A stretch of 64,000 nt of DNA from Nemertoderma westbladi (taxonomy: Eukaryota > Animalia > Xenacoelomorpha). The translations under genes and the position numbers were made by a program. Below are positions 1-44,082 of this stretch, one piece after another. The stretch spans positions 1 to 64,000 of the forward strand of contig JAUCBJ010006798.1 of NCBI GenBank assembly GCA_032718475.1. Reading direction: 5' to 3'. The number at the start of each line of letters is the position of its first letter. Position 1 is the first letter of the stretch. Under the pieces are notes generated by a model. That model searched no databases. It was given only the letters and a program-made list of their open reading frames with translations, and was not told where the DNA came from.

Positions 1-555
1 GCTCGCTCGACAAAGCGCCATCTAGCGGATATCTCAGGATTCTCCACGATTTTACGTACCGGACAGTTTTCAGTGTTTCACGGATTGACAGACTGCCGAT
101 CTGTGGTACGGTGCAATATTTATTCGTACCACGGGCCTATAGGACTGATTTTCCTGTATTCAGCACAACACATACTGACACATTCAGATATGTGATTGTG
201 CCGACGATAGATACAGTTACAGTTCGAGGACATAGCCTGATAGCTGCATAGTCTCTAGTTACTAGTTAGCGGTGCATATTTGTATGTACGGTCATCGATA
301 TATGGGTCGTATTACAGTCTGGTAACTTACATTATACCAGTCTGTCAGTATATTCATCGTTTTTACTATTGTACTAGACTTTACGGCTAAATATACTTCC
401 ATGTATGTCTGTGCGTTAGCGAAAAATATTATTAGTATATCGGGACTACCACACGCATCTAGACCTACACCGCAGTTCGGCCTGTCAGCCTGTCCTTCTG
501 TCTTTTCGTTATAGCTCATCCTGCCATCCGTCCGTATACCTGTGTGGTCGTCACA
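1..555 (+). repeat. 5' LTR of element A (left-truncated by window edge)
   Basis: Matches 10715-11269; ends ...GTCGTCACA. Confidence 0.95.
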
Positions 556-569
556 GTACGAATAAATAT
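556..569 (+). promoter_or_regulatory. Non-tRNA primer-binding site of A, complementary to LTR 116-129
   Basis: GTACGAATAAATAT directly after the LTR CA is the exact reverse complement of ATATTTATTCGTAC (116-129); no TGG start. Confidence 0.75.
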
Positions 570-1224
570 AAAATTTATACGAAAACCGGCAACCGGTACT
601 GAAATACTGACAGATTTAGGCTAGGCCTAATACTGTAATACAGTAGTACCGACGGGTCAAAATTTTATTGACCCACCGCCCACCCGAAAATAAGTACAAA
701 GTACCGGGTACTAAAGTCTGAAAGTACTGCAGTACTGTACCGGTACTGAAGTACGACGATATATATTTAACAAATTGTCGTACCCTACCCTGCCGCCCTG
801 CTGGCTGCCTAATCCTGGTACGAGTATGCCTATTCCTGTATTCGACAGGAAAGTTATATCTGTCTATCAGTCTATAGCTCAGTAGATCTGTAGATAGATA
901 GGCTATATCAGTATATACCCTGATTTATATATCATATATATATATACATCAGCCAGTCAGCATATCTGCCCTATCTCAGTATCTGCCTATTGCAGTACTG
1001 CCTGCTAAATAGGGATAGGCCTAGACTTGAACCGCTAAATGATACTCGGTCTTGTCTAACTGTCTAAGGTCAGAAGTTCTAAAAATAAATTACAGAATTA
1101 TATAAATATATTACTGGTAACTTTCGTTTTTATATGAAACCCATACTGCCAGTCTATCATTCTATCTGTCAGTCTGTCTATCATTTCAGCATTTCCAACT
1201 ACATCGATTTTGTTTATGTAGGCT

Positions 1225-4200
1225 ATGGAGCACACTTCGGAAATCGATGATTCTCTACAATATATTGATAGTACAATCAGGCCTATCAGTAATACCCTTC
1301 CCACTTGTACATCGTTAGGCCTACAGAGAAACTACTTAGAAAACCCTCTATGCACATCTGGCCCGGCCGTTGTACGACCCAGAGTAACCAGTACCGATCA
1401 GTATAGGCATAACCCCATTTCGGTAACCTCTGATCAATATATACCGGTTCAGGTAACTTCAACCACCGTCACTACCGGTACTGATGTTATATTTCCGGCA
1501 ACATGGTCTAATATTAATAGTTCTACATTGAAAGCTACTATTAGAGGCCATAAAGCGCATTTTACGCGCATTTTCAATCAATTTACGAGTTTGGAATCTC
1601 TAGGGACTACCGGTTCCCACAATGAAACACTTTTACAAAAACATAGAGCTGCCATTAATATCAAACATAAGATATCTGAACTCTATATCTCAGCTATAGA
1701 AATACTTACTGGTCTTAAGTACTATCAGGAATCTGAGGATTATAAACTCGAATTTCACTCCTTGATGGATGTCCTACATAAAAAATGTTTGTATATGGAA
1801 AGATCCATCGAGGGCTTACAGTCCGAACCTGGTGTGTTTTTTGCAGCAGATATACCACTTCCTCTTCATTCAACACAAATATTTAACAATGATGATGATC
1901 GTAGGTCGGAATCAGACTCACACTCAGTTTCTCGTTCTGCTAAATCTTCCTCAACTCAGGTCACTGCAGGGAATCGTACCCTCCGTGCAAGTCATAGACA
2001 ACGCAGGGCCGAATTAAAATTAAAACAATTGGAACGCCAAGCACAAATAAGGCTAGAAATTGAATTACAAACAGCCAGAGATCTAGCAGAACAAACTCAA
2101 TTAGATTCACAGCTGGCAATCGAATCACTGAGACAATCTGAGGTTTTTGAAGGACTTATCGATGATGACTGGTTGGCTCAGCAGGAATATCCAAATGATG
2201 ACATCATCCCAGTTTCTCATATTTCGACAGAAATTTCAGACCCCCCTTCTACCAGCATCGACTTCAACCCAAATTTACCACCTGTATCCAACACACTTCA
2301 TGCACCAGCAGTAATTACCACTGTATCTCAAACAACTGTAGGTACTAGTGCATATTGGGCCCAACCAAAGTTATATAAAGAACACCCTTCTGCTCCATTA
2401 ATTGATACAGATATCTATCTTCCAAACCCTCAAGAGGGTCATTTAGGTGCAGGTATATGTGATGCAGGTGTTCACTATACTCCACAACATCCCATCTTGA
2501 GCACAAGGACATCATGTCTTCCTAAAACGACCACTCTGACAGATTTCCTGCTCGGTACTAACCCTAATCCTAGTGTTCCCTTTTCAAATACTAGTCTTGG
2601 TGACGGGCCAAGACTAAACACGGATCTATTCGTAACCTCATCACATTCCCAGCTTCAGGATTATAACTTGGGTGATAAAGCCATTATCGGTGGTGACAGG
2701 TTATCAACAAGCTTATTCGGGGGTAATAATGACACGTGCAGTGCTCCCATTCTACCAATGCCTACTAATTTGTTAAATCAACTGTCTGAGCCTCTACGTA
2801 GAACTATTATTACTAAAGGTTCTAAACAACCAAACAATTTAGATTACTCAACTATCCCAGGGTCAGTTGTGCACCAGTTGCAATATCCAGCCAGTCGACA
2901 CGCAATTTGGACTGGTATTAATAATGAGTACACAACAACCCAATCTACTCCAGTAGCGTCACTCATATCTGGATTAAATCAACCAATCATCGACCCTGGA
3001 GGCAGTCCCTCTATCCCATGCACCTTAAATTTAGTTAGTAATAATCCTAACTTAACTCCGCATGACACATTCCGGAATAGCCCTGTACATGGCAGAGACC
3101 TACTGTTATTCTCAACCCCTCCAAACAGCCATATTAATACTGGTGGTTTCCCATTACAATCACACAGCCGTGACCTGTCTGATAACAATAATAACCAGTT
3201 TGATCTGATCAACGCCTTTCAGATGTGTAATGCTCAAAATATCGCAGCCATCGAACGACTTAATGCCAAATTGTCTATGCCAAATTTAGGGGTCCCACAG
3301 AAATTCAATGGAGAACCAGGGTTGTATGTGAATTTCGTAGCATCATTCATTGCAGATGTTGAGTCCAAACGCTTCTCCGAAAGTGAAAAGATGATGGCAC
3401 TTCAACATTATCTGGGACCTGAACCATTGGAACTCATTAAGTACTTTATGGGGATTCCTGGTGGTTATGAGGCCGCCTGGAATGTACTACATGACCGCTA
3501 TGGTCATCCCAGCATTATCATTCAGCAAGTAATTCAAGAACTAATTGGAAGCGTCGATCTTCGTTCTGGGAATTATAACCTAAAGAAAATTAAACTTCGA
3601 GCCTTTTCGGACAAAATTATCCAGAAAGTATTAGTCCTACAGTACTTCAAGTCAACTCATGAAATTAATTCCTCAGAGAATTTAAAGAAGATTACATCCA
3701 ACTTTGAAAATTGGATGTATGTCCGCTGGAAACGAGTAGCAGCTGGTATCAGGAAACAAAAAAACAGAGAGCCTCTAATAACCGAACTCGCTGTCTTTAT
3801 TAAAGAAGAGTCAGATATAATGAATGACGCTGTCTATGACCAACCTTCCAGCAATGGAAATCAGAATTTATCATCAGGTTCTCAAATTCAAAACACCACA
3901 ATGAACGTAATAGCATCAGTGGGACACGTAACCAGAAACAACTCAGCGAATCCTACTACAACCACTTCAACGCAAAGTCGACAAGCCAGCCTTACCGCTC
4001 GATTGGATCGCCAGCCTCAGCACAATAATCAGACCAATAGAGATAACAACAGACCCAATCAGAACCGTTATGGTCCTCAGTATAGAGCTCAAAATCAACA
4101 ACAAACACGTACAAGTGCTGTCATAAATAGAGGTAATGTTGTTATAAATACAAATTCTGAAGCTCAAGCCGCACCTAAATCCAGCGCCAACCAGACAAAT

Positions 4201-5973
4201 CCAGTCAATACATCAACTCCACGAGCTCCTTTACAGTCAAGAGCTCCACCACAGTCTTCTAGACCACCCCCAACTTGCTCATACTGTACTGACTCCCATA
4301 CCTTATATCATTGTCAACCATTTAATACACTCTCAAGACGCCAACAAGCCGAGTGGTTATTGAACACGGAATTGTGTTTAAAGTGCACGAATAAGGACCA
4401 CAAGACAGCAGATTGTACTGGTAGGAGTTACCGTTGTAATATAAACAATTGTCAGGAGACACACAATAAGGTCCTGCACTGGGCAATTGACCGTATCCAA
4501 ACATCTCAGGAAACATCAAATATATCCTGCATCACAACCGATAACTTCTCAAGAGTACCATCTGTCATTCCGACTAAGGATCTAAATCCCTACATGGTGT
4601 GGCTATCAGTTGTCCCTGTGAGTGTGTCTGTGGAAGACAAGGTGGTAACAACCTACGCATTGCTGGACGGTGGAGCCACATCTACTTTAATTGACGAAAG
4701 TGTTATACATAGTCTTGATGTCCAAGCTGGACCCAATATCCAAATGAAAACAAAGAGTGTTTTTTCTACCAGCATACAAAGTGCGTGTCTTTTTAATTGT
4801 GTCTTTTCACCAGTTATGAACAAACCGGGTTGTGATATGAACTTCAATATTGTGGCCAAAAATGCATTAGTGGTGAAAAACTTCAAATATGAATTTACTA
4901 ATGACATAGACACCATCGATCTGGCTAAATTGTGTCAGATCGAAGATTATCTGGAATTTCTGCGCACCGATGATGTTCGAGTCGATATTCCTGAGGTGAC
5001 CATTCTCATTGGAAGAGACAATCAAGAAGCTATTGAAGAGCATCTTGTGATCCAAGGAGACTCAGAAAGACCCTCACTCGTGCGTACTAATTTTGGGTAT
5101 TGTCTTGTTGGCAAAGTTCCAACCATTAAAGGTTCTATTAAAAATTTAATGACTCCTATCAGTGTAAATAATACTGAATCAGAAATACATATCAATCATA
5201 TAAGTTGCGGTCTAAATCCAACAACACTGAATATGATTGAACAGTCCATTGGAATGGGCACCATCTCAAGTACAAAAATTGACGACAAAGAGATGGCCTT
5301 ATCAAAGGATGATTTAGAAGCACTAAGAATCCTTCAAGATACAACTAAACTAACAAATGGTCGTTATACCGTATCTATGCTCTGGAAAAAAAACCCACCA
5401 GAACTAGTCAACAATTATCGACTTGCAAAGAAACGCCTTGATCAATTAATCGAACGGTTAACAAAAAAACCGGAATTGTACATCCGATACCATGAGAATC
5501 TTATTGACTATATAACCAAGGGCTATGCTATTAAAATCGAACCTGATACCCCTACTCTTCCTGGGAGAACATACTACCTCCCCCATCACTTCGTAATACA
5601 TCAACTAAAGGACAAACTTCGAATTGTCTTTGATGCTGCTGCTGTATATAAAGATATATCCTTGAACACACAATTGTACAGTGGCCCATGTCAAATAAAC
5701 TCTCTCATTGGTATATTAATGCGTTTTAGATGTGGGAGCATAGCCTTCGTATGTGACATAGAAGGCATGTTTCACCAGATTAACGTGACAAACGAAGACA
5801 GAGATAGCTTACGATTTATCTGGAAGTCTCCTGGCTCTGATCTAATTGAGCACTACCAAATGGTACGTCACATTTTTGGCGCTAATGATTCGCCATGTGT
5901 CGCAGGTCATACACTGAAACAGTGTGGGACGGATCACATCGATCAGTTGGACCAGAAGTTGATTCAGCAATAA
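1225..5973 (+). CDS. BEL/Pao polyprotein, part 1: Gag with CCHC-type knuckles, aspartic protease, N-terminal RT
   Basis: KFNGEP...AWNVLHDRYG Gag motif; CSYCTDSHTLYHC, CLKCTNKDHKTADC; ALLDGGAT protease; YYLPHH, RIVFDA, DIEGMFHQ, FGANDSP RT motifs. Confidence 0.93.
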   Translation: MEHTSEIDDSLQYIDSTIRPISNTLPTCTSLGLQRNYLENPLCTSGPAVVRPRVTSTDQYRHNPISVTSDQYIPVQVTSTTVTTGTDVIFPATWSNINSSTLKATIRGHKAHFTRIFNQFTSLESLGTTGSHNETLLQKHRAAINIKHKISELYISAIEILTGLKYYQESEDYKLEFHSLMDVLHKKCLYMERSIEGLQSEPGVFFAADIPLPLHSTQIFNNDDDRRSESDSHSVSRSAKSSSTQVTAGNRTLRASHRQRRAELKLKQLERQAQIRLEIELQTARDLAEQTQLDSQLAIESLRQSEVFEGLIDDDWLAQQEYPNDDIIPVSHISTEISDPPSTSIDFNPNLPPVSNTLHAPAVITTVSQTTVGTSAYWAQPKLYKEHPSAPLIDTDIYLPNPQEGHLGAGICDAGVHYTPQHPILSTRTSCLPKTTTLTDFLLGTNPNPSVPFSNTSLGDGPRLNTDLFVTSSHSQLQDYNLGDKAIIGGDRLSTSLFGGNNDTCSAPILPMPTNLLNQLSEPLRRTIITKGSKQPNNLDYSTIPGSVVHQLQYPASRHAIWTGINNEYTTTQSTPVASLISGLNQPIIDPGGSPSIPCTLNLVSNNPNLTPHDTFRNSPVHGRDLLLFSTPPNSHINTGGFPLQSHSRDLSDNNNNQFDLINAFQMCNAQNIAAIERLNAKLSMPNLGVPQKFNGEPGLYVNFVASFIADVESKRFSESEKMMALQHYLGPEPLELIKYFMGIPGGYEAAWNVLHDRYGHPSIIIQQVIQELIGSVDLRSGNYNLKKIKLRAFSDKIIQKVLVLQYFKSTHEINSSENLKKITSNFENWMYVRWKRVAAGIRKQKNREPLITELAVFIKEESDIMNDAVYDQPSSNGNQNLSSGSQIQNTTMNVIASVGHVTRNNSANPTTTTSTQSRQASLTARLDRQPQHNNQTNRDNNRPNQNRYGPQYRAQNQQQTRTSAVINRGNVVINTNSEAQAAPKSSANQTNPVNTSTPRAPLQSRAPPQSSRPPPTCSYCTDSHTLYHCQPFNTLSRRQQAEWLLNTELCLKCTNKDHKTADCTGRSYRCNINNCQETHNKVLHWAIDRIQTSQETSNISCITTDNFSRVPSVIPTKDLNPYMVWLSVVPVSVSVEDKVVTTYALLDGGATSTLIDESVIHSLDVQAGPNIQMKTKSVFSTSIQSACLFNCVFSPVMNKPGCDMNFNIVAKNALVVKNFKYEFTNDIDTIDLAKLCQIEDYLEFLRTDDVRVDIPEVTILIGRDNQEAIEEHLVIQGDSERPSLVRTNFGYCLVGKVPTIKGSIKNLMTPISVNNTESEIHINHISCGLNPTTLNMIEQSIGMGTISSTKIDDKEMALSKDDLEALRILQDTTKLTNGRYTVSMLWKKNPPELVNNYRLAKKRLDQLIERLTKKPELYIRYHENLIDYITKGYAIKIEPDTPTLPGRTYYLPHHFVIHQLKDKLRIVFDAAAVYKDISLNTQLYSGPCQINSLIGILMRFRCGSIAFVCDIEGMFHQINVTNEDRDSLRFIWKSPGSDLIEHYQMVRHIFGANDSPCVAGHTLKQCGTDHIDQLDQKLIQQ

Positions 5974-8825
5974 CCGACAACTTCTACGTTGACGATGGCT
6001 TGCTGTCTACGGATTCGCGGGACAGCGCCATACTTCTGGCAAAGAATATCATCAACTGCTTAGCACTTGGAGGTTTTGTCCTGAAGAAGTTTATCTCCAA
6101 TAGTAAACAGTTCTTAGAACAACTCAGTGTTGAACAATTAAGCCCACAGTTAGACCTTGACTTAGATAAACTGCCTGTTAGCAGAGCACTTGGCATCACC
6201 TGGGATACCGAATCAGACACCTTTACCTTCATAAGCACTATCACCCCTCGACCACTAACAAAGGCTGGATGTCTCAGTCAACTTGCGTCAATCTTTGACC
6301 CCATTAACTTCCTCGCACCATTCTTGCTGAAGGGCAAACTTATTCTTCAGTCAATATGGCGAGCAGGGACTGATTGGTCTGCACAAATTCCAAATGATCT
6401 TCAATCTAAATGGTCGAAGTGGATATCCCAAGTTCCTTGCCTATCAGAGATTAAAGTTCCACGAGTTTATCGTCAAGATCTATCCGTAGTTGCATCCTAT
6501 CAAGTGCACTTGTTCTGTGATGCTTCGGATGTTGCTTATGGTGCAGTTGGCTACACACGGTGTGTCGAAGAGAATAATATAAGAACTTCATTCATATTTA
6601 GCAAATGCAAGGTTGTCAGTATATCTGCTGAAAAGAGAACTCCTCGACTTGAGCTCGAAGCAGCCGTTGTTTTAGTTGACATTCTTTGTTTAATTAGAAC
6701 TGAATTAATGCGTTCCCTCAATATCGGTGAGATTCATTGCTGGACTGACTCCACCGTCGTGCTCGGATATATTACAAACACAACCAAATCATTCAAGCGG
6801 TATGTTGCAAATCGAGTTAGCTACATACAATCTCATACCAGTTCTAATATGTGGCATCATATCAAAGGGTCTCTAAATCCCGCTGATAAACTCAGCCGAG
6901 GCCTAAGTGCTGTTGACCTCATGAACTGTATTTCATGGTGGAATGGTCCGATGTTTCTCAAACAAACCCAGGCTGAATGGCCAAACAAGTTACACCTAAC
7001 CCCCACTATGTTTGAAGTCTCTGCCGAAGACCCCGAGGTTAAATTATCATCCTTGAACATAGAATCCATTCCTCACGGTGGGGCTGACCCTGACCCTATG
7101 TCTATAAACGATAATGGAAACTCACAGACTCTGACGTGTGACTACACCGACATGTTACAACAGTTCCACTATCACTGTATGATTCAGATCAATTCCAGCT
7201 CTTTGTCCCCAAATTGTGATTCCAAGCCTAGAGTCAGCATATTTGACCGAACAAAGGGTCTAACCTCCATGGAACGACTGGAGTTTGTGATCAATACTGA
7301 ATCGAACTGGAATAAACTTAAACATAAAATAGCATGGCTCGTTCGCCTTGCCAAGTTTTCAATAAACCCACAATTTGGTCAAAACATCACACGTAAAGTA
7401 CCATGCAATGAATTAGACAATGCAGAAGCGTGTCTAGTTAGGTTTGTTCAGAAATGTGAATTTCAGAAAGATATTGAACGACTTGAGGCAAACCTACCAG
7501 TTTTAAAGAAGAGCTCACTACGCCGTCTCTCTCCATTCCTGGACCCTAAGGGTATACTCCGTGTCGGCAGCCGTATTGAACATGCTGCTGTTCCTTACTC
7601 TACGGCCTTTCCAGCCATCTTACCAAAAGGGAGTCAAGTAACTCGTTCCTTAATTTGGCACACACATACCACAATGGGTCACATGGGTTACTCGGTCATC
7701 CTTTCCGAAATTAGGAAACGTTATTGGATAATTACAGCTCAGAGAGTCATTAAGTCGCTCATTACTAAGTGCTTCATATGTCGAAAGGTGCATGGGCGTG
7801 CTCTCGAACAGATTCAGGCCCCTTTGCCTATGACTAGAGTCACGGCTTATCTGCCACCATTCAGCTATATCGGTCTGGATATGTTTGGACATATGAACGT
7901 TAAATATGGCCGAGGGGTTATTAAGCGGTATGGAATTATATTCACCTGCCAGAATAGCCGCGCGGTTCATCTAGAACTCACTGTAGACAAATCAGCCGAC
8001 GCCTTTCTAAATTCTTTACGTCGATTTTGTGGCCGTCGAGGAACCCCCCTGCAAATTATATCTGACAATGGCACCAATTTCACTGGTGCAGAATCAACAA
8101 TTCGCTTGTTTCGTGAGTATGTGGAGGATGACTCTGTAAACTCATATACCACTCATAATAATATAGATTGGAAGTTCAATGATGCGGACACTACTATGTC
8201 CAATCACCTAGAATGGAAATTTCTTACCCCCACTGCGGCACATACCGGCGGATTTTACGAACGCCTTATACAAACTACAAAACGTATCCTGCTATCCGTA
8301 ATGGAGGGTAAACTTGTGACTGAAGACGTGTTACATACTTACCTCGTCGAGGCCGAATCAACTATTAATAAGCGGCCGCTCACCATGCTTAATAGTGACC
8401 CCACATCGAACGAGCCTCTAACCCCTCAACATTTATTAATTCAGCGTCCTGCAGCAAACGTTCCGATCGAGGATGAGATAGACGATTCCCAAATTTACAG
8501 CGAACTGACATGGAAACAAAGTCAATATCTCGCCAATAAATTTTGGGAGAGATGGGTACAAGAATATCTCACACTACTCCTCGATCGTCAGAAATGGAAT
8601 GTTCGACGCGACAACGTACAAATCAATGATGTCGTTCTAATTCAATACGAACCCAGTAATATGACTCCTCGTTCGCAATGGCCTTGGGGTCGTGTCGTCG
8701 AAACATTCCCAGATATCGACGGCAACATTCGCACAGTTCGCATCAAACTCAAGACTGGGACGTTTCTAGAAAGGCCAATCCAGCGAATTTGTCTCCTGGA
8801 ACAGGCTGATAATAATCCTAATTAA
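5895..8825 (+). CDS. BEL/Pao polyprotein, part 2 (after a 1-nt frameshift near 5945): RT YVDD, RNase H, integrase
   Basis: NFYVDD; LFCDAS, PRLEL, WTDS, NPADKLSRG RNase H; H..H..C..C zinc finger; LDMFG, SDNGTNF, GGFYER integrase; C-terminal RPIQRICLLE. Confidence 0.93.
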   Translation: MCRRSYTETVWDGSHRSVGPEVDSAITDNFYVDDGLLSTDSRDSAILLAKNIINCLALGGFVLKKFISNSKQFLEQLSVEQLSPQLDLDLDKLPVSRALGITWDTESDTFTFISTITPRPLTKAGCLSQLASIFDPINFLAPFLLKGKLILQSIWRAGTDWSAQIPNDLQSKWSKWISQVPCLSEIKVPRVYRQDLSVVASYQVHLFCDASDVAYGAVGYTRCVEENNIRTSFIFSKCKVVSISAEKRTPRLELEAAVVLVDILCLIRTELMRSLNIGEIHCWTDSTVVLGYITNTTKSFKRYVANRVSYIQSHTSSNMWHHIKGSLNPADKLSRGLSAVDLMNCISWWNGPMFLKQTQAEWPNKLHLTPTMFEVSAEDPEVKLSSLNIESIPHGGADPDPMSINDNGNSQTLTCDYTDMLQQFHYHCMIQINSSSLSPNCDSKPRVSIFDRTKGLTSMERLEFVINTESNWNKLKHKIAWLVRLAKFSINPQFGQNITRKVPCNELDNAEACLVRFVQKCEFQKDIERLEANLPVLKKSSLRRLSPFLDPKGILRVGSRIEHAAVPYSTAFPAILPKGSQVTRSLIWHTHTTMGHMGYSVILSEIRKRYWIITAQRVIKSLITKCFICRKVHGRALEQIQAPLPMTRVTAYLPPFSYIGLDMFGHMNVKYGRGVIKRYGIIFTCQNSRAVHLELTVDKSADAFLNSLRRFCGRRGTPLQIISDNGTNFTGAESTIRLFREYVEDDSVNSYTTHNNIDWKFNDADTTMSNHLEWKFLTPTAAHTGGFYERLIQTTKRILLSVMEGKLVTEDVLHTYLVEAESTINKRPLTMLNSDPTSNEPLTPQHLLIQRPAANVPIEDEIDDSQIYSELTWKQSQYLANKFWERWVQEYLTLLLDRQKWNVRRDNVQINDVVLIQYEPSNMTPRSQWPWGRVVETFPDIDGNIRTVRIKLKTGTFLERPIQRICLLEQADNNPN

Positions 8826-9352: not shown

Positions 9353-10704
9353 TCAACCCCGGTGATGTCTAACCAGAACCAAGTTGTTCAACATCTCAAA
9401 GGGGGGGGGGGGGGGGGCGACTCAGATCATCAATCTTCACTTCAACATCGGGAATGGGAACTTAGATGACTTGGGTCTCCGTGCTTCACCATTCCCAGAC
9501 TGGAAGTTCGCCGATCACGAGACAATACCAACTCCCTGACGATTACTGAGTATATATCTATCCTTCTCATTTATCCTATATATATTACAACGTGTAACTT
9601 CGTTATATTCCGTATATCGATGGCTATTTTTTTTTTTTTTTCAATTCCATTCGTGTACTACATTGTCTATGACATAACATTTATGGTGATGGTTTATATA
9701 GTTAGTATATAGTATAGTTAGTTTATATAGTTAGTATATAGTTAGTTTATATAGCTCACATATATTCCTGGAAGTGGAAAAAGTTCTGGGAAGATTTTTA
9801 GTTAGTTAGTAGTGAATATATTCGGTAGTTATTTTCAATTACTTTTCAGTTGTTAATTTTTTGATACCGTCGTTCGAAACGAAGTGCATTTAAATAACAG
9901 TTATTTTATGTAAAACGGACTCATTTGGTGTAGCTCATATATCATTAGGATACTCATATAATTTCTGATCCACCTTCGGCAATGGACCTCTCTATTAGAA
10001 CTCAGGCCGAAAGATCATTAAAATAATGTATTTAAAAAAAAAAAAAGTTTAGCTCTAGAGACTTACTCCAGTTGTCCTGTCTGTTCCTTTGTTGTCTGTC
10101 CACTGTACAGGGTTTTTAGGGAGAAATCCAGGACCAACCTATGATGCATTATAAGACAACCCCCAGGCTAGGCAACCCTCAAGAGGGCTCTGTTAACCTA
10201 CACCCTGAGGTGTCTTAAGGATCGGTCAACCGTAATTAGGGCGTTCATTCTTAACGGTGTAGCCCATTCCTCCGACCCAAGGTTGGAAGACCAAGACCTT
10301 CCAGTATAGCGTTAAAATGCAATATACTTGGAAACGGTCCTTATGCATGAGTATTATATCATCCATCCTATCACCCTACCTCCAGTATCTCCCTTCTCCC
10401 GACAACCTGGCTACAGTATATTTGTTCAGTTCAATGTTGTATTGTTGGACAACTGGTCGTCTCCAAGAGTTATAACAACGTAAAAAAAAACCCATGGCTC
10501 CTACCTTTCTAAATTTATGTGCAATATATACATTATAAATAAATATATTAATTACAATATTTTCCAAACATTTCGCGGTTTGTGCAATTTATTTTCCTTA
10601 GTCATACTCTTGTCTCAAATTATTTTACAAGTTAGCTTAAACATCTTATCTACTCTACTTAGATTTCGTGTTTACACCGGTGCACCCGAAAATCTAGGTG
10701 GGGC

Positions 10705-11269
10705 TGTGAAATCCGCTCGCTCGACAAAGCGCCATCTAGCGGATATCTCAGGATTCTCCACGATTTTACGTACCGGACAGTTTTCAGTGTTTCACGGATT
10801 GACAGACTGCCGATCTGTGGTACGGTGCAATATTTATTCGTACCACGGGCCTATAGGACTGATTTTCCTGTATTCAGCACAACACATACTGACACATTCA
10901 GATATGTGATTGTGCCGACGATAGATACAGTTACAGTTCGAGGACATAGCCTGATAGCTGCATAGTCTCTAGTTACTAGTTAGCGGTGCATATTTGTATG
11001 TACGGTCATCGATATATGGGTCGTATTACAGTCTGGTAACTTACATTATACCAGTCTGTCAGTATATTCATCGTTTTTACTATTGTACTAGACTTTACGG
11101 CTAAATATACTTCCATGTATGTCTGTGCGTTAGCGAAAAATATTATTAGTATATCGGGACTACCACACGCATCTAGACCTACACCGCAGTTCGGCCTGTC
11201 AGCCTGTCCTTCTGTCTTTTCGTTATAGCTCATCCTGCCATCCGTCCGTATACCTGTGTGGTCGTCACA
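10705..11269 (+). repeat. 3' LTR of element A (565 bp, TGTGA...TCACA), preceded by short PPT AGGTGGGGC
   Basis: TG...CA ends with 5-bp terminal inverted repeat; matches 1-555. Confidence 0.95.
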
Positions 11270-12439
11270 AACTTACCAAATGCAGGTAAGAGTATTCGGA
11301 GCCAGGGACAGCCCCAACTGCACCATGTACGCATTAAAGCAGACCGCATTAGACAGACGAGACCAATTTGACCCAGAAGTAGTTCGGACCGTGGAACGAG
11401 ATTTCTACGTGGATGACGGCCTCAAGAGTTGTGACACCTTGGAGCGCGCTACAACCGTAGCACACCAACTCCAGGATTGTCTCGCTAAGGGCGGATTTCA
11501 CCTGACGAAGTTCGCTTCCAACGAACCCGAACTGGTGAACTCATTTGACCCGACGGATCGCAGTGGAGGTGACCTAGACTTAGACCTAGAACCTCTGCCG
11601 ACGACCAAAGTATTAGGACTTAGTTGGGACCCTAACACCGACAATTTTAGGGTACGTGTAAGGTCCAACGACCAGACTAGGCCTCTCACTAAGAGGACTT
11701 TTCTCACTAAGAGAAAAGTTAGCTGAGCGATGGAGGGACTGGGAAGCCCAACTGACGTTCCTACAAGACTATACCATACCGAGGGTATACTTTCCTTTGC
11801 AAACCACCTTTCCTGCCGATTTAGAGCTTCACAGCTTTAGTGACGCTAGCAAGGATGGATTGGGGGTTACTTTATACCTTAGACGACAAGTGACATCGGA
11901 CAGCTACGAAGTGTCTCTCGTTACTTCAAGGGCTAGAACAATGCCATTGAAGTATATGACCGTACCTCGTGGGGAGCTGCAAGCCGGAACGATATCCACC
12001 GATATTGTCAGTCTAGTTCAACGCGAGCTGGAAGCTAACTTGAAGGTCACGTATTGGACGGATGCGACGTTGGTACTTTGGTACATAAACTACGAAGCGT
12101 TTGAGTTCAAGACTTTCGTAGCCAACAGACGGGCTGAAATACTAGACCGGTCGCTCAAACAAGATTGGCGTCACTGTCCAGGGAAGCTGAACCCAGCTGA
12201 CATCGCGTCACGGGGGATGCAACCGCTTGACTTTTGTAAATCAATAAATCCTTTTGGTTTAGAGGACCCGATTTCCTACAACGACCATCAGACGAATGGC
12301 CACCGTTATTCGACGCGACAACCAACACCATACCAGAGGGTGCCGAGATAAAAATCGACAAGGTTGTCAAGTCTAAAGCGAAAGCCAACGCCAAGGTCAA
12401 GAGGAAAAAGAGACGGACGAAATCTGATGACCTGGACGC

Positions 12440-12860
12440 CAGACCTGACATTATGCCAGACGTCTCACCAGACATTCGACCAGACGCTTGTACGAATCCG
12501 TCGCCGGATGTTCCGCAGGAGATTTCACCAGATGTTTCGCCAGATTGTTCACCAGATTACTCGCCAGACTATTCACCAGAAGAGACACCAGATTGTTCTC
12601 CGGATTGTTCGCCAGATTGTTTGATGGAACTCACGACAGAATGTCTACCGGACATCTCACCAGACTTTCCACCAGACATCTCGACAGACTGTCCACCAGA
12701 CTTTAGACCAGATTTTGAACCAGACTTTCTGACGGAAGTTACGCTAGACAGACTTTGGGACCGACGACAAGACATTTTGCTGGAAGTTCCACGCTATGTC
12801 TCACCAGACGTCTCACCAGACTGTTCACCAGACGCTTCACCAGACTGTCTACTAGACACT
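12440..12860 (+). repeat. 12-bp coding minisatellite (SPDx repeats) in the RNaseH-integrase linker of B
   Basis: Repeated TCACCAGAYNNN units encoding SPDV/SPDC/SPDY. Confidence 0.85.
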
Positions 12861-13821
12861 CCATTAGAAGACCCATTGGAGCGGACCTTTAGAGACTTAC
12901 CGAATTTGACTTCTTTGGACGACAAAGGTGTGGCCACAGCGATTACACTCCGCTCGAAGAAGGTACTTGACTTACCACCTACAGGTAAGCGTGTGACTAA
13001 GGTTAGGAAGCTTACAGGCTCACAGGAACACACTGACACTGTAGAGTTGAAACCGTTACTGCCAGTCGACACATTAGGTGCGGATGGTAAAGGTAAGACC
13101 GTAGAGATTGACGTACTTGGGGACTCAGACAAACCTACTGGAAGGCCCGTGGGCCTACCAAGTCCAGACAAGTATCCACACTACGACTACACCTTACCCG
13201 ATGACGTCACTAACACTTACGTTGACAGGATAGTGAACCTAACTAGATCATGGACTGACGCGTGCCGCAAGTTAGCATGGCTCAAACGATTGAGACAATA
13301 TGCCAGAGGCAAACGCGACTTTCCTAGAAGACTTACCTTAAAGGAAATTGGCCAATGTGAAGTTGATATCATTAGACATTATCAATTGCGATATTTCGCA
13401 CGAGAGTTCACAGCAAGGTAAAGGTAAACAGATTAAGTCTTCACCGATTTTGAGTTGGAGTCCGATTATTTACCGGGGCTTACTTTGTCACAAGTCCAGA
13501 CTCCAAAACATCGACTTTGCACTTGACTTTAGGTATCCTATCATCAAACCGCAACACCATGAATTACAGCGCGCTATGATACTGGACGCACATGTACAAC
13601 TCAAACACGTGGGTAGACACCACTGTCTATCACACTTACGCTCGAGGTTTGTACTGATTAGACCTAGTAAGGCACTGAGTTCGGTAACACGGAACTGTAT
13701 TATTTGTAAGAAGGTGCACGCGAGGATAGGACACCAAGAAATGAGTGAACTACCACTAGCAAGATTACAGGCGTTTAGACCCCCTTTCACTGAGACAGGG
13801 ATAGACTGTTTTGGACCCATA

Positions 13822-15003
13822 CCTAAAGAGTTGAGGTCTCTATAGGGGTGTGGGTAACAGGCGGCGGCGGACTCGTGAGGGTCTGGGGGCACGTTAAATC
13901 CAAATATAGTGCTAGGGAGTCACTGAAGGCCCTCGTGTCTAACGAACCATGAATTGCCATGGTGCCGTGGTTCCGTCTAGTCGGCATGTTGCCGTACTGC
14001 CAGTCCTGTACACAGTAGGGGTGGTGGCATGGCGTGATTTGTGGTTCATGTGGCGTGAACTATGTTTTGTATGTGAGCAACCAGTGGCAGTTGGCTTTGG
14101 GGCTTGGATGGTTCCATTGGCCATCAGCTGTTCCGTTTTTTTGATACTATATGTTATTGTCTCCATGTTCAGCTGATTGGTCTTTGGAGTGTGTTGAACT
14201 TCTGGGTCTCTGAGTCTCTGTTGCTGTAGGTACGTGAGTACACGTGATTGTATGTGTGGCCACTGCGAGTGAGTATGGGAACCCTTGCCAGTTGGACCAG
14301 ACGCCGCTGGTATTAGTAGGACCATATCTCTACTGCGCCCCAGCATACTTTGTGCACACAAAGATATTTTGCCCTGATGGCAAAATAAGGTACTCTCGAC
14401 TCTTTATGAGTTGATACAATTTTGTCCCCTCTGATTTGACCCCGATTTTGTCTTACCCGATTTTGTCTTCTGTGTGTACGTGGTATGTGTTCGATTTTGT
14501 GCTTACCGTTGTGTACTTGATTTCGTGAACATCTGTTGAGTACACGTGTACAGTGACTGGTAAGTGGTTACTTGTTCAGTAGCTTTTGAGCTACAGACAG
14601 TATTGTCTTTTCAATACTGCCGGCGAGGCAGGTGAAAACGAGTCAAAATTCCATGTTGGGTAGCGCAAGCCCACATGGGACAAGACCATCGGTTAGGCCC
14701 AAGGGCGACCTTGGTGCTCGATCGCTATCGACTGGTCCACCTGCCGGTTGACTCTTTGTTATACTTTTGAGTTGGCTCAATGTACAGTCAGGCCACAGTA
14801 AGTTGACAGTAGCCGCCCATCTGGCTACACGTTCGACGAGCTGTGCCGGTGTGATCGGGGGACCGAAAACAGAACCCGGGAAGCATCGGGCCACCCTCCG
14901 GCCCGGTCTGATAATAACATCAGTCGGACTGGCCCCAGGGGTGGTGGAAACACGTCCGCCTCGTGGGTGCGCCTCGGGGAGGAGCCCAGAAGGACGAAAG
15001 CGA
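13822..15003. mobile_element. Unidentified 1.18-kb insertion without TSD in the integrase of B
   Basis: Removing it restores IDCFGPI|IAKRGRVQVKRWG in frame; terminal hairpin CCTAAAGAG-TTGAGGT-CTCTATAGG; many internal hairpins. Confidence 0.75.
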
Positions 15004-15872
15004 ATCGCGAAACGCGGAAGGGTACAGGTAAAACGTTGGGGATTGATCTTCACTTGCATGGCCAGCAGAGCTGTCCATATAGAGCGAGTGACAGACTTGA
15101 CCACCAATGCCTTTATCCTAGCCTTACGGCGATTTATCGCTAGACGTGGATTGGTCAAATCCATATACTGCGACCAAGGGACAAACTTTGTGGGTGCACG
15201 GAACGAAATAACCAGAGCTTTGAGAAAGTTGGACCAAAACCAGATTTCCGAGGAACTACGTCCTCACCGTATTGTTTGGAATTTCAACACTCCAGACAGT
15301 CCGTGGAGAGGTGGCGTTTGGGAAAGGCTGATTGGCTAAATTAAGACAGCTATGGCTAAAGTCGTACCGACGCAACACATCTTGACAGACGACCAACTGA
15401 CGACGTTACTTATAGAAATCGAAGCAATCTTAAATACAAGACCGATCGCTTTGATCCCAGACAATAACGACGTACAGTTCGCCTTGACACCAGCGCACCT
15501 GCTTATGCAGGCGCCGAAGACATTGTTGCCCATTTCGGTACCCGTTGATAGTGACGGATACAGCAACAAGGCTTGGAAAATCACTCAATTGCTTGCAAAT
15601 AAATTCTGGGAAATATGGCAGAAATATTATTTGCCCTCTATTTCGACCAGAACCTCTTGGTATCTAAATACCCGATGTTTAAGACGTGGTGACCATGTTT
15701 TATTGGCTGAAGAAAATCTGAAAAGACGGTTTTGGCTGACTGGAGTCATTTTGACCACGCACCCTACATCTGGTGTAGTGAGGACAGTTACTGTAAGGAC
15801 TATCGACGGACGTACCGTAGATAGGCCTGTACAACGTCTCGTGCTCCTTGAGGAGACTAGAAACGAGACAGG

Positions 15873-17088: not shown

Positions 17089-20038
17089 CCGCTCCCAGAA
17101 AATGGGATTTAAGTCTATAAAATATACAAAATCACAGTTTCTAAAATATAAAAATACTCTAAACAGTTAGTCTATCTTGCGCGGACGGCGTTTACGCAGT
17201 TTCTTAAGGCTAGCAAGAGTCCTTTTCTCTTTGGGGGAAGCCACTTTACTAGGAGGGCCATAACTCCTGGGTGAAGGGTGCAATATGATTGCATTAAAAG
17301 GTTTGGGTTTACGGTCGGTGTCTCGTCCATTTCGATATGCTTCTCCTCGAGCTGATTTTCCTCCGCTTGTCATGGGATACGTTCGTCCAAAACTCTCGCA
17401 GAGAATAGGGTTTTCTAAGCTTGATATCTTCTTTGAGATTCGAGGTTTCCCAATCGAACTGAGATAAGGCCAATTCGTTTATCGATTGGACTTAATGTTA
17501 TAACTTACGTTTATCTGAACAAACGCAGGTTTCTTTGTTGATCTTTATAGAATAGCGTTTAACTCGTGTCGTACAACGCTCTCCTTCACTTTGATGAAGG
17601 GTTGTATCGCGTTAAACGGGACGACCATACGGTTGGATAATGATATTAGGTGTCTGCGTCATAATCCAGCTAGGTAAGATGGGCGGCTAGCTAGAAATCA
17701 CTGTCGGAGTGTTACCGATTAATTGTTAGGGTAGCACTAGATCTTGAACAGTGAATACCGTCCGCGAGGATCCGCGACACCACCAGGATCGCAGGTCTGA
17801 GGTCCAACTAAGGAATGAGGAGGTTTGACCGAGTATTCCGGGACTCTGATCGTAGGTTTACTCTAGGATCGTTAGAGCCGAGTGAGCATAGGTGATACGT
17901 CAAACAAGTTTCGCTCGAAACTCCAGTAAATATAACGAACACAACTGTGTTTAACACGACGTTTCCGTGGATGTTTATGTCTTTCCGTTTATTGGCTGGG
18001 TCTAGGACATTTATCGTAATAATACCAAAGACGCACGTCTGGTAGGGGAAACACGGGTGATATTTATTTGTTGTTACAACGCTTCTATCAAGAATTCCAA
18101 ATATACGTTGGAGTTACCGCGTCCATTTGTTTCTTTAGTGTCTTTTCTTTCGAGTCGATTTCGAATAGAATTTTCGCATTCGAATTTCAGTTTATGGTTC
18201 CGACTCCGCTGGGCAGGATATATAGTCGACATAGTCCGTATTGTGTAAATCGATAGGATGACCAGTAGTTAAGAAGACCACATACGTACCATTACGCTGC
18301 GTATAAGCTATCAACAAACGCTTGCAAAAGTAGAGTATATCGCTCCCCGATACCAAGAACATCTGCTATCAACTCCATCATGTCTGCTATATATGAGTTT
18401 ATCCACATTATAAGGAGTTTATATTCAGGCTAGCGAGCGTCGCTGCCTACTCCAATTAACCCCCGGACAGTACGAGATCCTCAGCGCCGATGTGTCGTCG
18501 CCGCTGTACTTTCGCCAACGACGTAGCCGCACAACGACAACGACAACCGGCACAAGTCACTCGACTGTCCGTCCCAAAGGCTTAGATGTACTTCAGGTTT
18601 TCCTTGGAGAGTTAGGTTACTTTTACGATTGCGACTAGCTACTGTAAACACACCTTAGTAGTAACATTCGCCTATAAACTCACAAGTACCACACACACAA
18701 CTTGTCACAAATTACACACACTCGGGTCACTTGTCCGTTAGTCAATGCCTTCCAGAATGTCACTATATTATTATGTATCCTTGGATACTATCAGTGCACT
18801 ATTTATTCCCTATGCTATTCAATGGGACAAGCTTTCTATTGTTCTTTTAACTCAATTCTAATTCTAGCGTGGTTGTTGCTATGGTGACATTATGCAAAGC
18901 TAGCGGTAGAATTAGAGCAATTCCAATGCATACAGATCTGGGATGTTATTTAATAGTATTCTTTAATAGTCAATGTTCTGTTTTATACATGACTTTATGA
19001 ATTTTATCGGCTATTGACTATGTTTGGGAGACTTTCGCACACTCATACACATAATAAGATAAATCTCCGCTCCCTTGATCTATTAATTAATGGAATTTTG
19101 GGAATGTTATAAATTGCGTAAAAATGGCAATTTATTAAATTCATTAAAAGGCATGAATTTAAATTTATTCCCTGAAATTTTATTATTTGATAATTAAATT
19201 GACATATTTTGATTCTAGAATATGTCTGGGGACACAAGATCCTTAATTCTATGACAATTGTCTTTTTAAGAATATCGGTAAATGCTACGATATCTTAATT
19301 GACTAGAATTGCTGAAGGATCTGAATTTTACAGATTTTGATTTATTAGATTTGCAAATATTAAATAATTAATATTTGAGATGGGCACCGATTTATTCCAG
19401 AACTTGTCTGGGGACGTTAACCACTGATTCTAGAATTTGTCTTTCAAGTATATCGGTGGGTGCCGCGATATCTTAATCGACTAGAATTACAGATGGTCAA
19501 AGGGTTTAACAGATTTATTTTGCGTTATACGCTACTGTTAAAGGGACATCACGCTACTATATGTATTATTTAATATACGGTATGAGAGCAATATCGCACG
19601 AAGCAATGTCAGTGTGAAGAGGCAAGTCGTTTCCAAGGTCTACCCAGAGCTTGGTTTAGCCGAGACACGAGGATCTGAACTTTGCATTCCTAATACTCTG
19701 CCTACCAATAATACTTGAATATAGTAGTGGCTTTATTGTACTTTAATAAGTACGGACATTTCATCTTACTGTAGTTACGTATTTGTAATGTAATACGGAC
19801 AGTAAGGAAGAAGGAAAAGAATTATTTCTTGCCGTCGCATTAAATATAATATATACGTAATTAAGTAATAAACGCGAATATATATTGCACTAATCTACTA
19901 AATAATCGCTAAAATAACATTCTACTGAATAAAATTAAAGAAAACGATTATAATAAAATTACATAGTAATACATACATAAATATAAAAATAATAAAATAA
20001 TATAAAATAATAGAGTCACACACCCACTCCATATGTTG

Positions 20039-23000
20039 TTACGTTATGGAGTCCCTAGATGTTTGAAGGATTAGGGAGGTGGTCGTGGGAAGAGAATCTT
20101 GCCTTCCACAGTTTCCGGAGAGTCCTCCATTCCCTTCCGATAAACACAAACGACCGACTGGGTGATTGAGTCGCTGCATCCTGAATACAATTCCAGGTTT
20201 CCTCTTCGTCCTGGAATAGTGACGATAGAAACATCGCTCAAAGTATATGACGGCGTCACAAAGCCGATTCCAGGAGCTATAGTGGTCCGTCGCTCTCTGC
20301 AGGAGAGGTGAGAGTCCCTGCGAGACGTCTGATGTTCCAGAGCTCCAATCGCTCTCTCTGATCTTCATGAAGGATCCACTCGCGGAGGGGAGGCCCAGAT
20401 CCACGGCGTCGTCCCTGGCAACATGTAATACCGACAGATCTATCCCGGGTTCAAATAACTCCGATCCACCCGTCCGGGTTTCAGGTTCGACTTTCTCCGC
20501 TCCCTTGGCTGGTCTAATCTCAGTCGGAGTAAGATGGGGAGGCCATTCATTCTCCTTACTCAGGAAGTCGGGTTCACCTAACCGGTCTATAGTATCTGTC
20601 AGTTCTTGAGGAGTTGCTCCTCTGGAAGCGATGTCCGTTGGATTAAACTTCTTGGGGCAATATCTCCATTGATCTACATTGGAGCTAAGATTGTCATTAT
20701 CTGAGGAGTGTGGTGTTCCCTCAGTTGGGTCGTCTCCCTCACTAGTATCATCTTCCCATTCACTCACCTGGCAGACGCGATCTTGAAGCAGTCTTTCCCT
20801 GAGCGTTCTACCGGAAGGTCCAGTAAGGTACCAACCTACTCTAGTTCTTACCGCATAGGTCTGTAGTGGCTGCGGTTGAGCAGGCCGTTTCTCTAATGTC
20901 TCCAGCGCCTCATGCGCGTTTTGGCCGATGAGTATTTGCACTCCAGGATAATCAGTCTGGAATCGAGGTATGTTAAGATGTTGGATGCTCTCATCCTCGT
21001 CCCAATTATAAAGGTCTGCTTGAGTAGTAGCGAAGTTCTTTATAGCCACCATTTTCACTGACCTTATACTGTATTCTCCTAGTTTATCCTGTGGAGTGGA
21101 CAACTCACCTATATAATAGTCGGCAGCTACAGTAGAATTCCAAACCTGCATGATCCCTGACATGTTTAGCTTGGTTCGGAACTTGGGTTGTCCAGCAAAG
21201 ATGACTTCGGCTAGTTCCCTATCGATGAATGTTCCTGTGCTACCGGAGTCCAGGAGGGCGTTCACTATATAGCTCTTCTGAGGTCCGTGGACCCGTAACT
21301 GGACTACAGGAAATTCTCGGATTCCTATATTGGAAGTTGGCGCTTTCCAAGATGGTTGTTGATCGGAAGTAGTTAAGGTAAGGTCGCTGTCTGTGTCTTT
21401 CTCATACACGAGTGCTCGATACACTGCGGTGGTGTTTATTAGGTAACAGGATTCGTTTTGGTCGGAGAACTCGTCCGTATAGAATCCTTCCATCTCAGAT
21501 TGATCAGTGTCGTTCACATCACTGAATTGGACATGTAGTTCGGACTCACTTACCTGACTCGGGCTGTTTTGTTCGAATTCCGTGTGCAACAAGATATGAT
21601 GTTTTGCGCCGCACTTTGCACACCTTGCGTCGGAGTTACAGGTTCGCCGTTGGTGTCCTCGTCTGAGGCAATTATAACACAACCGCTTATCCCACATGAC
21701 TTCACGTCTATCCTCGAGTGATTTCCTCAGGAATTTATCACACGCATTTAAACGGTGGGGCCCGTCGCACAGCACACATTTCGGCTTGATGTTACTTACT
21801 TTAACCTGTGCTATGTGGTGCACACTTGTTCTTTCCTCGGGCTTTCTCACCTGAATTCCTTTAGGAGACGTAGGAGGGGTTTTTTGTACCGGTTCCCTTC
21901 TGTCATTGGGTCGAGACTTGGATTTACTTACCTGTTCTTTAGGCATTTTATTGACATAATAAGGCCTGTCAGTGTCTTTCCCGCTGTCCTCTCCTTGAGA
22001 GGTTTGGCTTTCACCGTCGTCGGTATAACATACTGGTGTTACCCTTCTCCTAGAAACGGGTTTCTCACTTACCTTGTTTTCCAATGTCTTCTCTCTGGAC
22101 TGCCTTAGGAGCTGTAATTTCACTTCTCTATCTAAGAATGACATGAGATCAGTCATGGTAGGGTCTCGTCGTTGTTGTTCCATCATATATAACACCTTCT
22201 TATCCCAGCGTGTACCTACTCCACCCTTGGGCAAAGCAGATGCTAAGGCTCTTACAACCATAGAATTCTGGTATTCATGAGACTTACCTAGCCAATCTAA
22301 TTGTCTACAGATCTCCTGAATCTCATCGGAAAACTCTATAATCCCGCTGCTAAGAAACTTTCGGGGCGCCATTAATTTTGCATACAAATACCCAGCTATG
22401 TCATTCCTATTACCATACCTGATGTTTAGTGTATCCCAAACTTGTCTTAATCCATCTGGATGTCCAATAAATTTTAACGCCATTGACTTGGGAGGTCCTT
22501 CCAAACATTCGATGAGGAATCTAAGTTTCTCTCCGTTAGATAGTACAGAGGTGAATTATATTTTAATTTGTTTTGTGAACTACTGTTTATTTAAATATTG
22601 TCTGTAAATTGTGTGCGGTCATTCTGGAACAAAATATAAGAGCCCTTACAGGCTCACATCAATCAATCAAAACAGAGTTCTGTATGTTATCTTTGTAATA
22701 TTCATTAAAAGGTAACCATTTCATCTCATCTCCATTGAACTTGACAATCTCTCCAACCTTTACCGCTTGCCGGGCTTCGGTTCTAGCCATTTGACGCGTA
22801 AAACTTTCTTGGGCCATCGTGCTATTTAATATCGAGTTATCGGTATATAAATTTCTCGGATTATGATCAGTTCTATAGGGAATATCATTATCAACAGGTC
22901 TATAATTACCCTTAATAGGGTTCACTATAGGAGTTTCTACTTCGCTAGCAGTATAAATGCGTGTAGGCTCCACACCTTGCGCATGAGATACTTCAGACCT

Positions 23001-23219
23001 AACAGGTTGACACATTGTTACAGAGGGTGGTGGTATACCCTTTTGGGTATTTACTAATTTATCGCGTTCAAGCGCGATACTTTGCTGCACTTCTTGCAAC
23101 TCTAGCCTACTTTCCCTTACTGTGCCCTTGAATTGCTGGACAGTCTCCTGCATCTGCCCGAGCAGGATATCCATTGTATCTAGTAGACTGTCTGACAGGT
23201 TCTGCTTAGTATCAGACAT
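20039..23219 (-). pseudogene. Gag-protease ORF of C fused to remnants of RNase H and the integrase C-terminus; split by a 121-bp insertion
   Basis: KFNGD..W..F, WDTLNIRYG, CVLCDGPH..C, CYNC..GH..C, ALLDSGST; jumps to WRYCPKKFNPTDIASRG, then to HPVGRLCL. Confidence 0.88.
22551..22671 (+). mobile_element. 5'-truncated non-LTR retroelement 3' end inserted in the gag of C
   Basis: TSD ACAGAG (22545-22550, 22672-22677); GAGCC-CTTACA-GGCTC stem-loop followed by a (TCAA)n tail; removal restores the gag frame. Confidence 0.75.
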
Positions 23220-24551
23220 GACTAGGTATGTACAGTTGAATGCCTACTGCTATATTACAGTCTAAGCAAGTCTAGTAACTCAGTATGAACTGCTAGCCTA
23301 GTAATTAATTACCGTTACTGCTACTCAATGTAGCGAGATATATATATAATATATTAGAATACCGGTATACTTATAGTATATATAACTATATAAGTATTAT
23401 TACAGACTAGGTTTATCTCCGAATACCGGTATAATTTTAGCATAAAATATATATAAATATATAATAGGCCTATCGGAATACCGGTATACAGCTTACAGTT
23501 TATAGTATATATAATTCTGAAATAGAATTAATTACAAGTACCGGTATAATTTCAGCCTAGATTTATAGAAATAAAGATAATAGGCCTATCGTAAATACCG
23601 GTATATCAATTGTTTCAAATAATTGAATTTCTGTTACTTTAGGGTTACTTGGTTACTCTAACTTACTTTATTACCGTTATTTAAGCAGTAATCCAACTGA
23701 TATTAAGACCTAATGGTTGTATGGTAGGCCTACTATTTATAAATCTTTAGATTTGATTTATAATATATATATACCCGTTTTAATGGGTTTTGTCAATGTT
23801 TGAAATAAATGTTATTATTTCTGGGGAGTAATCACTACACAAAGCGGTGCGCTTTCAGTGAAGTGTTACTTATGAGACACTAAAACAAATAATACTAATT
23901 TACCTAAGTTACTTAATACTACAAATTACGTACAATTCGGGTTGAGATTACAATCTCTAAATAAACACAAAAATTTACAAAAAACACAAAATACGAATTT
24001 TTAGGGTAATTTTACAAGAAGTCTACAAACCAGCCTAACAAAGGGTTAGAATACCGGTTATTACAACGGACAGGGTACTACGGTATTTGAAATAATAAGT
24101 AGTAGTAAATACACTGCGTTGTCTAGATAGGAAAATACCACCGCCTGACGACCTATAGCCGTATCGCTATAGGTACTACGTTATGTATCACGGAGTGTTC
24201 CTACCTAGAAGTTAATAGAGCTAATCGAATGTGCCTATCAACCACTTTACAACACAAATATAATGCCTACACTTACTTTCGGAAAGCACTGTACACTAAA
24301 CCCTAAATTAGGTACGAGTACTTGTACAACAGATAATCAGTAGTTAAATATACTTGAACAGCTAAAAGAACCACGGCATCTGCTGGAGTGACCGATGCAC
24401 AAAATCACCAGTCTTTACCTACGCCGAGCAGCCCGTGTAGTACCGGGGTTAATTTAACTATAGCGGTATGTATAACAAACACAATTACTGTAGGAACAAA
24501 CTTGGGGAATGAATGTTGCGGATAATCGCATAAACTCTGAATAATAAATAT

Positions 24552-25395: not shown

Positions 25396-25407
25396 TATAT
25401 CCTTTAA
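25396..25407 (-). promoter_or_regulatory. Non-tRNA primer-binding site of C, complementary to an LTR-internal segment
   Basis: Minus-strand TTAAAGGATATA directly follows the LTR end; the LTR sense strand carries TATATCCTTTAA (16636-16647; one G.U variant at 26171-26182). Confidence 0.72.
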
Positions 25408-27745: not shown

Positions 27746-27787
27746 TAGAAACGTAACGATATGTAACCACATATATATTCGTATACG

Positions 27788-43410: not shown

Positions 43411-44073
43411 TTAACCTTTATGAGGCACACTCTAATCCAAATTAAAAATACTCCAAATAGAAACACTTTTTGAGCTAAAAACACCACAATATTTACTATT
43501 TTATTTATTGACATTAATAAAAGAGAAAAACCCAGCCCCCTTTCGAAATTATTCATTAGAATTATTCATTATTCAGTATCCATTCACATTTAAATTGCTC
43601 CGTAGCGTTGGATAATTACCACCCCCCTCTCCGCATCTCCTAGTTCTGACAGATATGAAGGACCGAAAATATATATATATATATAAAATAAGTCAATCAA
43701 TAAAGTAAACTAAAAAGTAAAAATATAAAATAAAATAAACATTCTTTATATATTATAAATTAAAGAGTAGAAGTGATCACACATATTATCTATGCATATT
43801 GGTATATCATTCAGTTACTCAGATTGTCAGTTTTAGTGCAGACCAATAACATTCTTCACCGTCACCAATATCAGTACAGCATACCGGTATCCATCAAATC
43901 TGTACTTCCTCTTTTATTGTGCTATCATTATCAACATTTAGTATATCAAGAGACAACATCGAACTCTCATTATTTTACTACATCAGCCTCGGCCTAGCTG
44001 CTAGCACTATCCCTAAAGCAAAACGGTGATACGTAGTATATTTATCCGGTCGGGATCCCTTGATCAAGTCACA

Positions 44074-44082
44074 GTGAAGAAT
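44074..44082 (+). promoter_or_regulatory. Candidate non-tRNA PBS of D, complementary to 43851-43859
   Basis: GTGAAGAAT after ...GTCACA is the reverse complement of ATTCTTCAC. Confidence 0.5.

Follow-up and report, generated by a model that had tools for sequence, protein, structure and literature searches.

How an LTR retrotransposon begins minus-strand DNA synthesis when no tRNA-type primer-binding site (PBS) follows its 5' LTR is the question raised by the start of the window, that is, the whole stretch of 64,000 nucleotides of Nemertoderma westbladi DNA analysed here (contig JAUCBJ010006798.1, positions 1 to 64,000). Element A occupies the window from its start to 11269. Its 5' LTR (1..555, + strand) ends in CA and has its first 10 nt before the window, and its 3' LTR (10705..11269, +; 565 bp, TG..CA) is preceded by a polypurine tract (10690..10704, +) lying directly before the TG. 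The two copies are 100% identical across the 555 bases that they have in common (1..555 and 10715-11269). ORF 1 (1222..5973, +) encodes Gag with DUF1759 and a triple Cys-His box, a protease motif and the first part of reverse transcriptase (RT), and ORF 2 (5889..8825, +) encodes the rest of RT with its YVDD, RNase H, whose acidic residues can be read in the ORF, and integrase. The reading frame shifts within RT, indicating that the copy is broken or misassembled there.

The proteins assign the element clearly. The domain order Gag-PR-RT-RNase H-IN (PF03564, PF05380, PF18701), the Pfam families DUF1759, Peptidase_A17, the integrase families and DUF5641, and the TG..CA ends with a polypurine tract are those of BEL/Pao, and the three Cys/His motifs in the Gag translation match the published pattern (PMC554778). 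Element A, with its identical LTRs, is a young retrotransposon of this superfamily. Membership of the Tf1/sushi group was considered and rejected, the Pfam matches being BEL/Pao ones and a chromodomain match being absent. The 18-nt PBS for tRNA-Arg or tRNA-Gly described by the ICTV is missing, no TGG following the LTR; since the family is delimited by proteins, the element stays in BEL/Pao despite departing from the described priming. Its closest named proteins come from fish, echinoderms, molluscs and cnidarians, and its lineage is probably the aquatic Sinbad/Sailor or Suzu, although it forms a long, unplaced branch in a quick tree of relatives. Element A sits inside the RT region of element B, in a nest of BEL/Pao elements (window 11270-15864 and 26629-31533).

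Directly after the 5' LTR, the PBS at 556..569 (+) is the exact complement of the LTR segment 116..129 (+), the predicted self-primer, whose 3' end would lie at 129. The earlier note had claimed that TGG is lacking here, that the two segments form a perfect 14-nt reverse complement and that the pairing is flush with the LTR's CA. All three statements were borne out by the sequence, with the refinement that the main contigs of DNA runs X1-X3 (two samples) carry A at 569, which makes 13 nt the length that can be relied on. A flush 14-nt match to the LTR was found at 0 of 3367 internal control positions of the element, and 0 of 300 controls reached 14 nt under the wider rule given below for relatives. 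Complementarity of at least 10 nt between the own LTR and a PBS adjacent to the LTR end, as in Tf1, is present in element A. Moreover, segment 116-129 is unchanged in a contig of a diverged subfamily that shows 9 substitutions and 3 gaps across 31-198. The PBS contains an AATAAA (561-566) that occurs after the 5' LTR only and would be masked by a primer duplex. No tRNA genes were found in the window, and an Rfam search over 1-1300 returned two matches, both far under threshold.

The same geometry had been proposed for elements C and D, but these two carry little weight for self-priming. The boundaries of element C are sound (1216-bp LTRs, 5-bp target duplication), and a candidate PBS (25396..25407, -) follows its 5' LTR (25408-26623). 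Its 12-nt match to 26171-26182, however, needs one G-U pair and is equalled at 48 of 2757 control positions; with Watson-Crick pairs alone the best match is 6 nt, which 259 of 300 controls equal. A second, imperfect duplex at LTR positions 314-332 (3/150 shuffles) competes with the one first proposed, and no convincing spliced primer was found at offsets 0-11. Element C is young (LTRs 99.9% alike), and its LTR carries four consensus-like splice donors. Its 8.3-kb interior (17089-25407, -) contains Gag and a weak protease match, searches for RT, RNase H and integrase gave no match, and the element is possibly non-autonomous.

For element D, the nine bases claimed are present at a candidate primer segment (43851..43859, +) and a candidate PBS (44074..44082, +), the PBS starting with GT and the primer ending in AC, a pattern shared with most relatives. 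Position 44073 is nevertheless an inferred LTR end, with no second LTR within the window, and the match, a weak one, is equalled by 2 of 1019 flush controls and, when the wider rule is applied, by 8 of 300; the same PBS pairs equally well (9 nt) with the LTR of element C. Element E (LTR end ~62861, LTRs 83% alike) gave no match beyond chance. Element C is inserted at the end of the integrase of element B, and element E in element D near 47100. Long ORFs behind the integrases of B (27767-31533, +) and E (49615-52193, -) are partly alike in DNA, have no Pfam match at threshold and are possibly env-like extra genes. In addition, host-like ORFs with Fibrinogen_C and Laminin_G_3 domains (34946-35638, -; 39626-40432, -) flank an array of 63-65-bp repeats at 36443-39000.

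Distant relatives provide the wider evidence. A 31-protein alignment, with relatives 36-40% identical from fish, echinoderms, molluscs, cnidarians and unnamed contigs, retrieved 80 metagenome loci and 24 animal-type BEL/Pao contigs in prokaryote assemblies (L081-L104), the latter apparently representing host contamination. A search of viral contigs yielded no relatives. LTR ends were set from the comparison of 5' with 3' copies belonging to one locus or one family. A first pass without splicing gave Watson-Crick matches of 9-11 nt near the LTR end in 3 of 12 rows, a 9-nt match in L032 being set aside, and the scarcity of unspliced matches led to a splice test. The resulting rule demanded a PBS start 0-5 nt past the LTR end and Watson-Crick pairs only, forming either one uninterrupted stretch or one that bridges a consensus-like GT-AG intron no shorter than 50 nt; its offsets and splicing were devised on the first 11 families. 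L032 was dropped because its direct repeat has no CA end and is 4 kb away from pol, and same-family duplicates were dropped before the count (L003, L007, L011, L025, L029, L031, L038, L042, L056, L064, L067, L086, L102). A nested repeat in L087 was likewise rejected (4 nt, equalled by 298 of 300 controls). Two misses were retained, namely L037, with 5 nt strictly and 10 nt if a non-consensus donor is allowed, and L101, with 8 nt, or 10 of 11 if one mismatch is allowed. Among the 104 loci, no tRNA-primed BEL/Pao element with both LTRs was found that could serve as a control.

Under this rule, 14 of 16 distant external families with an LTR end fixed by copy comparison carry own-LTR complementarity of 10-15 nt, 12 of them across a GT-AG intron junction and two contiguously. 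Swapped PBS/LTR pairs reached at least 10 nt in 1 of 342 cases and 11 nt in 0 of 342, whereas own pairs reached 10 nt in 15 of 19 (14/16 external plus element A), or in 3 of 19 unspliced. Among the first 11 families 10 reach 10-15 nt, each equalled by at most 1 of 300 controls; in held-out loci, for which the rule was fixed beforehand, four of five new families reach 11 nt, the fifth being the one-mismatch case L101. The complementarity, its position and its specificity to each family are thus established, and so is its dependence on removal of the GT-AG segment. The LTR/PBS pairing that the earlier note wished to see checked across relatives was found in these families.

The split structure itself can be followed in natural copies. 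The predicted LTR introns measure 76-697 nt, and exon 2 supplies 3-8 nt of the primer. In two families the LTR occurs both with and without a segment that opens with a GTAAG donor and closes with a pyrimidine tract and AG, located exactly inside the PBS-complementary stretch. The segment is precisely lost in L067 (compared with L022/L042) and in the 3' LTR of L031 (compared with L054), leaving a contiguous 11-nt complement in each, although the two LTRs of L031 may derive from different copies because the assemblies are short-read ones. Between L084 and L086, whose LTRs are ~85% alike, two PBS differences are mirrored by two differences within the last three bases of exon 1. The PBS begins 0-5 nt after the LTR end, varying by family, and TGG is absent from the first 8 nt in 17 of 19 PBSs; L037 and L095 are external families with TGG at +1. 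Of 27 elements, 9 of them with an LTR end inferred from the match, 20 have an AATAAA or ATTAAA downstream of the primer end, 15 of these within 60 nt; upstream the frequency is 0.07 per 60 nt. LTRs ending in TA, not CA, were seen in L004/L003, L067 and L079. Scans without a known LTR end detected 11 nt in 14 of 35 contigs against 1 of 35 decoys, and in 4 of 16 against 0 of 16 in a second set; these are supporting data only, since at least three hits (L005, L087 and L071) look unrelated to an LTR end and several contigs are close kin. Positive families are spread across the whole quick tree with contiguous and split forms intermixed, and the long unplaced branch of element A makes its kinship with the spliced families a loose one (at most 44% identity).

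Where the RNA of element A starts bears on how such a primer could be made. Initiator-like pentamers had been proposed as start sites in A (70-74), D (43811-43815) and C (26237-26241). The pentamers are located there, but the sole RNA-end hint in A lies at 27..29 (+), ~45 nt upstream of the proposed initiator and upstream, not downstream, of the primer segment. It comes from a single contig of run X5 (a different sample that bears the same species label) that starts at 27 and bears a 19-nt loose end matching a cDNA 5' primer printed in the accessible text of a preprint (bioRxiv 10.1101/2023.02.05.527185); contigs alone cannot prove an RNA start. X5 contigs spanning 27-540 showed no joint, 547-760 lying outside them. 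The single contig hints that + strand RNA begins at or before 27-29, in which case the primer would be a 5' fragment of ~100 nt. This fits the earlier suggestion of a primer longer than that of Tf1, though not the 45-70 nt proposed for it. The LTRs of A and E share a GCGCCATC-type motif (15-28; ~63055-63075, -; 47290-47305, -) that may resemble a CTCF site, and in element A this motif (window 15-28) adjoins the hinted start.

Folding predictions give a mixed picture. A predicted local hairpin (101..134, +) competes for the primer 3' end at -15.0 kcal/mol versus -14.5 for primer:PBS, and two changes in the diverged subfamily are retained in it as G-U pairs. The predicted pairing probability of primer and PBS is 0.18, 0.66 or 0.94, varying with the stretch folded. 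Of the two flanking duplexes of the Tf1 'pretzel', the one tested reached p 0.03 in element A and p<=0.1 in 8 of 24 elements, which is weak overall. No AATAAA or ATTAAA was found in the LTR of element A itself, and elements A and D are without a canonical poly(A) signal after the primer.

Taken together, it is likely that element A uses its own RNA, and not a tRNA, to start minus-strand DNA synthesis, with a primer that in relatives would often be built by splicing; priming from an internal LTR segment, as the earlier note had supposed, is supported by A and by 14 of 16 families of differing sequence. The transcript of element A would start upstream in the LTR, perhaps near 27, and 116-129 would fold onto 556-568/569. 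Cleavage immediately 3' of 129, by analogy with Tf1 most plausibly by the element's RNase H, would then free a 3'-OH on the ~100-nt 5' fragment, from which RT would copy back through U5 and R as far as the cut before jumping to the 3' LTR copy. We infer splicing in vivo, duplex formation, the cut at the primer 3' end and RT extension from this arrangement. In most relatives a GT-AG intron of the LTR splits the 11-15 pairing bases, so that splicing would build the primer. With the cut placed immediately beyond the intron, strong-stop DNA would not extend across the junction, and 3' LTR RNA would be the template from which the intron is copied again; an LTR without the intron but with a contiguous primer would result where the 3' LTR copy was spliced. 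A poly(A) signal downstream of the primer end would leave the R overlap needed for strand transfer. Element A is the contiguous-primer form. Fairly likely, too, the BEL/Pao elements of aquatic animals include a broad branch that has replaced tRNA priming with a spliceosome-assembled self-primer inside R: splicing of the 5' LTR would license reverse transcription, the intron would be passed on via the unspliced 3' LTR, and A-like lineages would arise by intron loss, their primer becoming constitutive.

Other readings of the pairing fare less well. It is improbable that the element's RNA primes in trans, short LTR-only transcripts from solo or 3' LTRs being cut, possibly by a host nuclease, and annealing to the PBS of full-length RNA. 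Such priming predicts the same sequence pattern, and in element A the cis pairing has to span ~430 nt with the hairpin competing; most relatives, however, have only 45-225 nt from primer to PBS, the bases after the primer in A can pair with U5 (-14.5 kcal/mol, p 0.03) as in a cis fold, and in the Tf1 precedent, as far as its available descriptions go, RNase H cuts a fold made in cis. Quite improbable as well is a pairing that serves as RNA structure for a different task (packaging, dimer formation, poly(A)-signal masking or splicing sensing) while a host RNA or protein primes. The AATAAA in the PBS of A that a duplex would mask is consistent with such a job, and the ICTV gives tRNA-Arg/Gly priming for the family (PMC8742986). 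Yet in every positive family the paired stretch starts 0-5 nt past the LTR end, at the place where priming has to occur, the great majority of the PBSs have no early TGG, and the PBSs differ by family, each fitting its own LTR only, a diversity that a small number of host RNAs would not account for. Chance, or some by-product arising at the DNA level, for instance a short inverted copy from template switching, accommodates elements C and D, which are in or near the chance range, but is largely refuted and very improbable given the controls for A and the swapped pairs, the 12 families in which the complement is absent as contiguous DNA and present only across an intron junction, and the compensatory change across the intron in L084/L086.

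If self-priming of this kind operates, reverse transcription would be tied to host RNA processing in a manner without a described counterpart among known self-primers, and the persistence of an intron in a sequence that passes through RNA in each cycle would be explained. LTR finders based on tRNA would miss or mislabel such BEL/Pao elements. The model also predicts exact RNA ends and junctions for each family.

The literature describes self-priming in other groups. In Tf1 the RNA's first 11 bases anneal to the PBS, and cleavage by RNase H falls between bases 11 and 12, according to the accessible portion of one account (PMC7175516), and duplexes flanking primer:PBS form a 'pretzel' according to that of another (PMC10085805). 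Tf1 has been shown to self-prime, and the same has been proposed of Tf1/sushi, Tj1, Tcn1 and copia TAR elements, as stated in the available sections of further papers (PMC6317226, PMC4600332, PMC6934838). For BEL/Pao, the ICTV profile calls replication poorly understood and the family tRNA-primed (PMC8742986). The main texts of PMC3118150, PMC6238403, PMC8556966 and PMC554778, whose supplements may contain PBS annotations, do not discuss the PBS, and introns are not mentioned in the main texts of PMC6238403 and PMC8556966. The accessible parts of PMC8220671, PMC3286476, PMC3601003 and PMC12451622 contain nothing on BEL/Pao self-priming. Within the listings, abstracts and open papers covered, no report of BEL/Pao self-priming or of a splice-built primer was found, in keeping with the earlier note, which was aware of no self-priming in BEL/Pao.

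Compared with these systems, element A resembles Belpaoviridae in its domain order, Pfam families, triple Cys-His Gag, YVDD and TG..CA LTRs, and differs from the ICTV profile in having no 18-nt tRNA-Arg/tRNA-Gly PBS (PMC8742986). The predicted elements Tcn1 (gypsy) and TAR/Houba/Osr-1 (copia) were likewise recognized from at least 10 bp of LTR complementarity 0-5 bp after the LTR; they are plant elements of other superfamilies with contiguous primers, and the available text mentions no splicing step (PMC6317226). With Tf1/Tf2/Tj1 and the Tf1/sushi group (Ty3/gypsy chromoviruses), the available descriptions show a shared plan: no tRNA PBS, an LTR-CA-adjacent PBS that pairs over ~11 nt with the element's own LTR RNA, and the need for a cut (PMC7175516, PMC10085805, PMC4600332). 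Unlike Tf1, element A belongs to BEL/Pao, its primer is internal, ~90-100 nt from the start hinted at by one contig instead of comprising the first 11 nt, and the three-duplex 'pretzel' is not clearly conserved in it and its relatives. In most BEL/Pao relatives, again unlike Tf1, the primer lies across an exon-exon junction to which the upstream exon contributes part. Tf1-like self-priming likely extends to another superfamily, through an internal and often splice-built primer.
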